From IMG/VR virus record IMGVR_UViG_3300045988_036809: 60,458 nt of DNA; one strand, written 5' to 3'. Both the position numbers and the translations under genes were made by a program. Below are positions 50,144 through 51,347 of the stretch, in pieces (positions within the stretch are counted from its first letter, which is position 1; each line of letters opens with the position of its first letter). Under the pieces are notes generated by a model. It ran no database searches. It worked only from the letters and a program-made list of their open reading frames with translations, and was not told the origin of the DNA. This DNA is from a virus.

Positions 50144-51347
50144 TTAATATTTAATATTGAAATGTCCGTGTTCATTTACCCAATCAATAGCTTCCGCGTA
50201 GGTAATGCCGTTGTTTTTCAGAACGTACAGAAGGTTATGGAATTTAGGATGCGTTTGCTTTAAGCGTTCAAATCTGCTTTTCTTTTCTAAGTGACATCCG
50301 AATCCACACAGAACACATCCGGTTCTATCGCATCCGGTAGTATGTAAAATCGGTCTACCTAGTTCAAATTCTTCCATATCCATAAAATCTGAAAGATTAG
50401 TCTGCCCGGTCTCTTCATCATCTGTAACCACATCACCATAAACAGAACATATCGGCAAATTATTTTCTTTGATGTAAAGCAATACATCTTGTTCCGTCCA
50501 AAATGACATAGGATTACTTGTTGGAATTTTCAAGTCAAATCCATTGCAACCATTCTGTAACCATTGTGAAGTTCTTAATTTGCTTTCACTTGCCATTTGA
50601 ACAGTAATAGGCACTCTGCCTGTATCTTTGTTGTATTGGTGCGCAGGCTGTTTCTTCATTACATTGCAACATTGACCAGATACTTCAAATGGTGCATTTA
50701 ACATAAACAGGTATTTTGACCTGTCATACATTCTGCCAAATTGCTCACACTTAACGCCGAATAGCTGTTTTACTCTGATTGGAGCCTTCAAAATTTCACT
50801 AGGGATATTCCCCATCTTCAAATCGGCAAATGCCTTGTTTTCCTTGTCCGTTCTCCTGTCTATTCCTATTAAATCGGCTATGCGATAAGCAAACGGAATC
50901 CCTGTCTGTCTGTCTGTCTGTCTGTCTGTCTGTCTGTCTGTCTGTCTGTCTGTCTGTTAGGATTTTAATGTATTTTCTGCTATCTGCAATACATTCCGAT
51001 ATTTCTTTTGAAAATATTGGAAATCCATACTTTTCACAAACCTGTGAAAATGAAATTTTCGGTTTCAAAACAATCAAATTTTGAAATGTCTGCGCAAATT
51101 TCTTTAATTCCGGATATTGTGTCGGTACATCGACGAACACCAACGGGATATCTTTATACTTGCAAACGTTTCGCACAATGTCTACCAATACTGTGCTGTC
51201 TTTTCCACCACTGAAACTGACGTAAACGCCTTCTTCTCCAAACCGATCGACCCATTCAGTTATCCTTCGTGCTGTCATTTTAATTTTTGCAGAAAGAGGA
51301 AGTGATTGCATCTGATACAAGTCTGTCATTGTATGTTTATTACCCAT
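50144..51347 (-). pseudogene. PAPS-reductase-family (DndC/IbrA-like) gene interrupted by an out-of-phase (CTGT)14 tract
   Basis: N-part VYVSFSGGKDSTVLVDIV (P-loop). C-part has a Cys cluster CDRTGCVLCGFGCH. The C-part frame is open through the repeat (..TDRQT-GIPFAYRIADLIGI..) but offset by 1 nt. Confidence 0.75.
50902..50957. repeat. Tetranucleotide repeat (CTGT)14
   Basis: Read directly. 56 nt. Encodes (TDRQ)n in every frame. Confidence 0.95.

Follow-up and report, generated by a model that had tools for sequence, protein, structure and literature searches.

A tetranucleotide repeat as a probable ON/OFF switch in a PAPS-reductase-like gene of temperate gut phages

The window analysed here is the whole stretch of 60,458 nucleotides (nt) of the viral genome IMGVR_UViG_3300045988_036809 from IMG/VR. 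On its minus strand lies a gene of the phosphoadenosine phosphosulfate (PAPS) reductase family that is interrupted by a perfect tetranucleotide repeat. As assembled, this PAPS-reductase-like gene consists of two open reading frames (ORFs) of 182 and 225 amino acids (aa). The features of the gene, in coding order, are the following:

50958..51347, minus strand: N-terminal coding part of 130 codons with the first part of the PAPS_reduct/PP-loop domain (from the ORF list, the first PF01507 stretch and phrog_2302/424)
51195..51218, minus strand: PP-loop motif SFSGGKDS, residues 44-51 (read from the sequence and its translation)
50902..50957, minus strand: candidate switch tract, a perfect tetranucleotide repeat, (ACAG)14 in the coding strand and (CTGT)14 on the plus strand
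50144..50901, minus strand: C-terminal coding part from GIPFAYRIADLIGIDRR to NIKY, out of register by 1 nt at 14 units, with its stop codon at 50144-50146
50799..50901, minus strand: out-of-frame tail DSVCLSHSRFNRNRQENGQGKQGICRFEDGEYP of the 182-aa product obtained at 14 units (ORF 50799..51347), with its stop codon at 50799-50801
50666..50671, minus strand: Cys-Cys pair C225, C226 (SGQCCNVMKK), invariant in alignments of 30 and 55 sequences
50294..50332, minus strand: Cys cluster C-x4-C-x2-C-x3-C, CDRTGCVLCGFGC, which is C338/C343/C346/C350 of the 399-aa form and is invariant in the same two alignments

Tandem Repeats Finder (TRF) described 50902-50957 as a repeat of period 4 with 14.0 copies, 100% matches and 0 indels. 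With no more than 1 mismatch allowed, a 20-nt (CTGT)5 probe had this tract as its sole match in the window, where 0.00 matches were expected from 100 dinucleotide-preserving shuffles. The N-terminal frame begins at ATG 51347, continues through KYIKILTDRQTDRQ, reads the tract as TDRQ repeats and ends after 182 aa at the stop at 50799. Offset from it by 1 nt, the C-terminal frame is open from just 5' of the tract to the stop at 50144 (GIPFAYRIADLIGIDRR...CDRTGCVLCGFGCH...NIKY). Translation of (ACAG)n gave a cyclic, stop-free TDRQ peptide in all three frames. When the gene was rebuilt in silico with 10 to 18 units, a full ORF was obtained at 10, 13 and 16 units only (395, 399 and 403 aa, respectively), and the product was truncated at 11, 12, 14, 15, 17 and 18 units. 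The original prediction, made from the letters of the window, had placed a perfect (CTGT)14 tract inside a PAPS-reductase-family gene, with both gene parts open through the repeat at a 1-nt offset and TDRQ in every frame; repeat detection and translation bore this out. Its expectation that losing one unit or gaining two would fuse the parts into a protein of ~400 aa proved exact, at 13 and 16 units.

A full-length protein could also be made at any unit count if the message were recoded at the tract, by frameshifting of the ribosome or by slippage during transcription. All three tract frames are indeed stop-free, and nothing further was found in favour of recoding. There was no conserved downstream structure, and a scan for promoters and terminators around the gene gave results at the level of shuffled sequence. 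To our knowledge, slippage recoding occurs at homopolymeric or heptameric slippery sites and not at ACAG repeats, which counts against it here. We regard recoding as highly improbable.

The fused sequence had >7,600 matches in a protein search. The best 120 (63-96% identity) were single proteins of 349-447 aa, nearly all of which had 1-5 TDRQ units at one shared position. At the DNA level, we compared 102 loci (cited below by L numbers) from IMG/VR, GTDB genomes (metagenome-assembled genomes, MAGs) and metagenome contigs, representing 93 distinct gene sequences. Every match was returned for the IMG/VR set only; the metagenome set comprised the best 80 of 363 tblastn matches by score and was biased toward ON (intact) genes. 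A perfect tetranucleotide tract of 3-17 units was present at ~nt 380-420 of the gene in 78 of the 93 distinct sequences, including relatives with amino acid identities down to ~50%. Among these 78 sequences, 45 were ON and 33 were OFF. The full ORF was regained by adding or removing one unit in 30 of the 33 OFF alleles, and thus the tract is the only lesion in those genes. The IMG/VR set contained 6 ON and 15 OFF loci, and its distinct sequences with perfect tracts of at most 13 units comprised 4 ON and 12 OFF alleles; these ON fractions are near 1/3, the value expected at mutational equilibrium.

According to the MAG titles, the hosts were Lachnospiraceae, Blautia, Acutalibacteraceae, Feifaniaceae and unclassified Clostridia, and the metagenomes were from the human gut and rumen-type sources. 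DNA and protein searches of GenBank phages yielded no relative with more than 47% aa identity and none bearing the tract. In the wider family, represented by 150 sequences at 50% clustering, the TDRQ repeat was present in 4 and many lacked the insert altogether, so the tract marks one broad subfamily. An absent tract together with a naturally bipartite gene in relatives had been named as the outcome that would undo the original prediction; the relatives turned out to be single ORFs of 380-447 aa, nearly all of them tract-bearing, and their comparison supported the proposal of a candidate phase-variable switch, in which a non-triplet repeat splits one phage gene.

To compare the pace of tract change with that of the surrounding gene, the tract was removed and the remaining gene flank (1119-1149 nt) was compared between alleles. 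Flanks without a single mismatch were found for alleles with 13 (ON, L008) and 9 units (OFF, L087), with 10 (ON, L012/L098/L100) and 11 units (OFF, L026), with 4 (ON, L060) and 6 units (OFF, L124), and with 12 (L022) and 9 units (L024/L025). Allele pairs with flank identities of 99.2-99.8% were up to five units apart. The tracts compared here are all shorter than those on which short-read assembly breaks down. The tract changes faster than point substitutions accumulate in its flanks.

We then estimated the ratio of nonsynonymous to synonymous divergence (dN/dS) by the Nei-Gojobori method (NG86) for 998 pairs with dS of 0.05-1.5, treating the parts upstream and downstream of the tract (the N and C parts) separately. 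The median values were 0.116 (N part) and 0.084 (C part) for the 198 OFF/OFF pairs, 0.137 and 0.149 for the 506 OFF/ON pairs, and 0.138 and 0.150 for the 294 ON/ON pairs. Both halves of the gene are under purifying selection, even between OFF alleles. The out-of-frame half of OFF alleles is under the same degree of constraint as its counterpart in ON alleles, so an OFF allele represents a functional gene that is temporarily out of frame and not one in decay.

These results bear directly on the explanation that the gene is a decaying pseudogene, or is naturally made in two parts, to which the ORFs of 182 and 225 aa in the window as assembled would correspond. A dN/dS of ~0.1 in both halves, OFF/OFF pairs included, speaks against it, as do the 30 of 33 OFF alleles with no lesion other than the tract and the hundreds of intact single-ORF relatives. 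The methionine of MGNIPSE is also not conserved as a start, being replaced by T, Q, V or E in relatives. There is very little room left for this explanation. In these comparisons, the gene showed four features of a contingency locus: a non-triplet repeat within an ORF, polymorphism of the unit count, toggling of the frame with both ON and OFF alleles, and purifying selection.

The repeat unit itself was found to differ between subclades. Four units occupied the same site, namely ACAG (encoding TDRQ), AACG (NERT), AGCC (ASQP) and GACC. AACG was confirmed in the DNA of L012, L026, L068, L090 and L098, AGCC in L145, and (GACC)n in L033. An entire clade (L072-L083) has no tract and carries an unrelated peptide at the site, ILTEKKKDGKSI. 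A distant subclade (L033, L053, L055 and L057) has a run of G8-G9 ~150 nt downstream of the tetranucleotide site, at ~nt 556-585 of the gene, and the frame changes in L033, L053 and L055 mapped to this run. Because four different units occur at one site, it is the repetitiveness that is conserved, not the peptide. As judged from these sequences, the repeated gain of different hypermutable tracts argues for selection on mutability over selection on the peptide or chance.

If, alternatively, the selected feature were the (TDRQ)n peptide as a linker or spacer of variable length, the DNA repeat would be a by-product. The 1-5 TDRQ units encoded by ON alleles, and the identity of the peptide from all three ACAG frames, would suit such a role. 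The same place is taken in other subclades by NERT, ASQP or a GACC-derived peptide and in the tract-less clade by the unrelated TEKKKDGKS, and one third to two thirds of the alleles are out of frame, which makes a selected linker very unlikely.

Tract decay was also observed. L065 (ON) carries (ACAGGCAG)3, and the tracts of L126 and L136 (both OFF) are interrupted; these alleles read as locked states. Further repeats of this type were noted elsewhere among the relatives. The contig of L055, from a rabbit-gut Lachnospiraceae MAG (CANQTL010000011.1), has nine G9 homopolymers in the 9.4 kb around its PAPS-reductase-like gene plus a (GACA)10 tract, and may represent a prophage with many homopolymer switches, like the polyG-rich Campylobacter phages. 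Additional GACA/CTGT tracts lie outside the PAPS-reductase-like gene in L033 (4552-4591, 10 units) and L003 (~744-767, 6 units).

Taken together, we assign a probability of roughly 0.78 to the reading that the (ACAG)n tract is a hypermutable ON/OFF switch, a contingency locus operated by slipped-strand mispairing. Mispairing of this kind during replication of the phage or prophage DNA would add or remove units of 4 nt, and each such change would move the downstream two-thirds of the gene into or out of frame. If the tract behaves like the tetranucleotide tracts of H. influenzae, a switching rate of about 1e-4 to 1e-2 per generation would be expected for 10-17 units. With the flanks of the window, 10, 13 or 16 units would yield the full enzyme of ~400 aa (ON). 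Other counts would leave a stump of 150-190 aa that lacks most of the domain and every invariant Cys ligand (OFF). A phage population would thus always be a mixture of ON and OFF genomes.

Several observations weigh against this reading, or against the OFF state of the window in particular. The evidence for a switch consists throughout of comparisons between assemblies. A neutral tract that is free of selection would show the same ON fraction of ~1/3 as the unbiased IMG/VR set. In the metagenome set, 63 loci were ON and 17 OFF, a count that is shifted to ON by the ranking of matches by score. OFF alleles made up 33 of 78 tract-bearing and 3 of 15 tract-less sequences, a difference (Fisher p = 0.15) that comes from a biased sample and was not used. 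A conserved obligatory partner gene was not found in the window or in the loci of relatives examined.

The neutral expectation for the ON fraction is part of a broader explanation, in which the tract is hypermutable and non-adaptive: it would drift in a tolerant linker, and the frameshifts would be a mutational burden that is purged. The decayed tracts of L065, L126 and L136 and the clade that does entirely without a tract fit with this as well. Against it stands the persistence of long perfect tracts at one site in lineages down to ~50% aa identity, when a pure burden would be quickly lost through synonymous interruptions. Four units plus an independent polyG tract have arisen within one gene family, and the adjoining DNA methylase gene has simple sequence repeats (SSRs) of its own, with no non-triplet SSRs anywhere else in the 60-kb genome. 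On balance we consider non-adaptive drift unlikely.

A separate concern is restricted to the state of the window. The true tract may have more than 14 units, or be mixed, and may have been collapsed to 56 nt by the assembler, in which case the real majority allele could be in frame. By our reasoning, in an assembly graph with k=55 a tetranucleotide tract of whole units and at least 14 units long collapses by the shortest walk to exactly 56 nt. The maximum in SPAdes-type NODE contigs was 14 units (L113 and L114), and all four distinct sequences with 14 units were OFF. Contigs that end within the tract (L014, L015, L018, L111 and L112) carry 52-56 nt of it, and those that end within a pentanucleotide tract of the neighbouring methylase gene (L059, L063 and L071) carry exactly 55 nt. 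On the other side, 16 and 17 units were resolved in other contigs (L009, L011 and L013), and OFF alleles were common at 5-12 units, well under k. Since 56 nt is the k=55 output for any longer tract, the OFF state of the window is uncertain, and 14 may be a floor for its tract and not a count. We see such a collapse as a serious possibility, though short of an even chance. It is compatible with the switch, as the survey, flank and dN/dS evidence rests on tracts of at most 13 units. Contig breaks at the tract were also considered as a sign of heterogeneity within samples; this was rejected, as ends of 52-56 nt equally fit a tract longer than k = 55.

The protein that would be switched was characterised from its 13-unit fusion. 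Its score with Pfam PF01507 (PAPS_reduct) was 62.1 bits, where the cut-off is 22.5, and the match fell into two stretches on either side of the tract-bearing insert, the second covering residues 191-346. It also matched phrog_424, annotated as "phosphoadenosine phosphosulfate reductase". With a score above the gathering threshold and an SGGxDS motif, the protein belongs to the PF01507 / PP-loop ATP pyrophosphatase superfamily. Residues S46, G48, K49, D50 and S51 of the PP-loop were invariant in the alignments of 30 and 55 sequences. If APS reductase, TtuA and DndC-type enzymes are taken as analogues, the Cys cluster probably provides the ligands of an iron-sulfur (Fe-S) cluster; the arrangement of CC plus CxxC is familiar from Fe-S APS reductases. 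An AlphaFold2 model had a mean predicted local distance difference test score (pLDDT) of 69.6, with values above 90 in the core and of 51-62 over residues ~100-220, roughly a 100-residue insert that includes the tract-encoded loop. The modelled insert is consistent with a loop that tolerates variation in length. In Foldseek searches the core matched PAPS/APS reductases best, followed by FAD synthase and TtuA (E of 3e-5 to 5e-3), and the fold search placed it in the PAPS/APS-reductase, TtuA and LarE superfamily and no more precisely. A sequence-profile search of the PDB gave a single weak match, to CysD. Neither the fold search nor the profile search pointed to a substrate.

Assignments below the superfamily were not obtained. 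The scores for CysH-type PAPS/APS reductases were 30.7 against a cut-off of 154 (NF002537), 17.4 against 254 (TIGR02057) and 23.8 against 235 (TIGR02055); all NCBIfam scores were far under their cut-offs, and no curated equivalog was reached. Among the PADLOC models, BrxP aligned with residues 39-101 only, which contain the PP-loop (E = 2e-11, positions 133-194 of a 779-position model), and SspD matched the PP-loop only (E = 3e-5) with no separately significant stretch. DndC and DUF3440 models from Pfam, NCBIfam and PADLOC had no match to the fused protein. An identity as DndC, IbrA or BrxP was rejected on the grounds of PP-loop-local similarity, the lack of DUF3440 and the lack of partner genes in the window. 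The link to DndC, IbrA and BREX-associated systems in the original prediction therefore stood at the level of the superfamily; at the family level it fell, given sub-cut-off scores, matches confined to the PP-loop and no ParB partner. The enzyme is probably a stand-alone phage protein of the PAPS-reductase family, with a PP-loop core and a Cys-rich, Fe-S C-terminal part.

The window has three non-triplet SSRs of at least 4 units, all located in two DNA-modification-type genes within 3.4 kb. One is the ACAG tract. The other two are inside a C5-cytosine methyltransferase gene (PF00145; 46351-48411, minus strand), 2-3.5 kb downstream of the PAPS-reductase-like gene:

47609..47646, minus strand: perfect pentanucleotide tract of ~7.6 units, (TCTGC)n on the plus strand and (AGCAG)n in the coding strand (TRF 100%), encoding SRAEQSRAEQSR
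48121..48139, minus strand: coding-strand (ACTT)4.8 tract, period (AGTA)4.8, TFTYLLTYSFPC, just upstream of motif IV (FPC) (TRF)

The C5-methyltransferase gene is broken into several frames in the window, and its pentanucleotide tract encodes SRAEQSRAEQ. At the same site, relatives have 6-13 pentanucleotide units or, in their place, (ACAG)13, (GACA)6 or (ACGA)10. The ACTT tract has 4-6 units in relatives, with frame changes there in L088 (5 units) and L124 (6 units). With these tracts, the phage lineage probably has a second and a third phase switch. The gene also has an 8-nt insertion in motif I (ELFAG-YGSQ) at ~48320-48340 on the minus strand, where the window reads TTATTTGCTGGCTGACCGGCTACGG and L022, L084, L088 and L101 read TTATTCGCCGGCTACGG. 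The insertion creates a stop after ELFAG. It is present in L011 and L069 as well and is thus inherited, not a sequencing error. The C5-methylase copy of the window may be non-functional, or its translation may begin at the internal ATG 48304 and leave out motif I. A regular-expression comparison across loci for a G-run frameshift site in ORF-B of this gene found nothing.

The two genes reside in a complete temperate phage genome. Phage genes in the window include those for a major head protein, portal, large terminase, tail fibre, serine integrase, RecT, single-stranded DNA-binding protein (SSB) and replication initiator. The two ends of the window share an exact overlap of 31 nt within a tandem array whose unit is 27 nt; positions 1-162 and 60144-60458 form one such array of at least 17 copies, which encodes on the minus strand a 9-aa repeat, GASSATGDY/GNC/GYK. 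The genome is therefore circularly closed, and the window opens it within the gene of a repeat protein.

A Pfam scan of the genes at 43.9-59.5 kb identified SSB, YopX, a GIY-YIG-like protein, two methylases (C5-cytosine and N6/N4), MazG, a weak radical-SAM match and a DnaC-like protein, and no cysteine desulfurase, DndB/D/E, SspB/C or BREX core partner. Searching the window by tblastn with the ParB_N (L142), SNF2-methylase, diversity-generating retroelement (DGR) reverse transcriptase and Avd proteins of relatives gave no match. A ParB_N gene was present in the tract-less relative only, two genes upstream, and an N6_N4 methylase gene also lies beside the gene of that relative. With neither a ParB_N partner nor DUF3440 found in the window, the locus does not qualify as an IbrA/IbrB-like pair.

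Several other genes were noted near the PAPS-reductase-like gene. L139-L141 (contigs with P0022) have, at 751-2351 and ~4 kb upstream of it, an Avd-like gene (23S_rRNA_IVP, a weak match) beside a reverse transcriptase gene (RVT_1), and this pair looks like a DGR. In L145 (4803-6234), the gene is followed by a short ORF weakly resembling Apyc1/Lactamase_B and by Gad2 (anti-Gabija, PF26128). In the window itself, an ORF at 53662-54276 is Lactamase_B_2-like, and one at 54402-55370 weakly resembles radical-SAM proteins. Together, these genes of L145 and of the window hint at a counter-defence island. The neighbourhood is one of accessory genes for DNA modification and counter-defence.

What the switch would serve can be proposed with less confidence. 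We infer that the PAPS-reductase-like enzyme modifies nucleic acid (DNA), probably through a reaction of the adenylation or sulfur-transfer type. Phages with modified genomes would then escape one set of host defences, and those with unmodified genomes would evade defences that depend on modification or be spared a cost in the lysogen, so that a mixed population would hedge its bets. This DNA-modification and bet-hedging role is somewhat less than an even bet. The same tentative standing applies to the wider proposal that SSR-driven epigenetic bet-hedging operates at multiple loci throughout a clade of temperate phages that infect gut Clostridia, by way of hypermutable tracts (four tetranucleotide units, a pentanucleotide and polyG) that were gained independently and repeatedly, specifically in DNA-modification-type genes (PAPS-reductase-like and C5-methylase). 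If the multi-locus proposal is true, such phages would be a counterpart of bacterial phasevarions, with each burst or lysogen population made up of mixed modification states and so prepared for hosts with classical restriction as well as for hosts with modification-dependent defences, and an uncharacterised modification of nucleic acid by a PAPS-reductase-like enzyme would be implied.

Slipped-strand contingency is a textbook strategy of host-adapted bacteria and has only lately been proposed for phages, for short homopolymers in lytic coliphages (PMC12633550). The case here would be a tetranucleotide switch of the long, classical type that is conserved in many uncultured temperate phages infecting the dominant Firmicutes of the human gut and rumen, in an enzyme class that is routinely annotated in phages as an "auxiliary metabolic gene". 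If the reading is true, gut phage populations are inherently mixed for a function that is probably the modification of nucleic acid, and the ubiquitous phage "PAPS reductase" gains a testable role in the contest between phages and host defences. Such genes would be systematically split or missed by gene callers and in virome catalogues, and assemblers would break or collapse contigs there. The ON/OFF polymorphism would also provide natural isogenic pairs for finding the product of the enzyme. The literature searched covers bacterial tetranucleotide phase variation, phase-variable methylases, polyG tracts of Campylobacter phages and homopolymer contingency loci of T-even and other lytic phages; tetranucleotide tracts in phage PAPS-reductase-like genes or in phages of gut Clostridia were not described in it.

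Four groups of known systems offer comparison. DndC, SspD, BrxP and IbrA share with the present enzyme the PP-loop SGGKDS, conserved cysteines and a phage or defence-island context, and the ParB_N and N6_N4 methylase genes beside the tract-less relative recall IbrA/IbrB pairs. In contrast to those systems, alignment is limited to the PP-loop region, and a cysteine desulfurase, DndD/E and a ParB partner were not found in the window. Sorensen and colleagues reportedly described, in 2021, hypermutable polyG tracts in receptor-binding or structural genes of Campylobacter phages. Those tracts likewise create SSR-driven ON/OFF diversity in phage genes, and L055, with its many G9 runs, resembles that case. 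The present locus is different in having a tetranucleotide tract in an enzyme gene of the early region.

Bacterial contingency loci with tetranucleotide repeats are known from Haemophilus influenzae and Neisseria, such as mod (AGTC/AGCC), lic1A (CAAT) and hgp (CCAA); they have been reviewed (PMC11868660) and modelled (PMC3546556, PMC6889271). Their SSR tracts change by slipped-strand mispairing at replication, at a rate that rises with tract length (PMC11868660, PMC3546556). As in those loci, a long perfect 4-nt tract lies here within an ORF, the gain or loss of units toggles the frame, and ON and OFF alleles occur in near-identical genomes under purifying selection; the bacterial target is also often a DNA-modification enzyme. 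The present locus differs in its carrier, which is a temperate phage of Gram-positive gut anaerobes, where the bacterial loci belong to Gram-negative pathogens adapted to their host. It also differs in the position of the tract, which follows ~130 codons of the gene and falls in an internal loop, not near the 5' end, and in its unit, which has been replaced several times at one site.

The phage contingency loci T2 agt and T4 rIIA are homopolymers of at least 6 nt in lytic coliphages, with variants at low frequency (Gomez, Barrick & Waters, bioRxiv 2025, PMC12633550). That study never mentions tetranucleotide repeats or PAPS reductase. The present tracts differ in comprising 12-68 nt of a 4-nt unit, in being conserved over a large clade and in a consensus state that differs between assemblies. 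In T2, switching of agt, which encodes a glucosyltransferase, is bet-hedging against modification-dependent defence (PMC12633550). With a phage-encoded SSR, reversible frameshifts and a DNA-modification gene, a role that is inferred for the enzyme here, T2 agt is the closest precedent for the PAPS-reductase-like gene.

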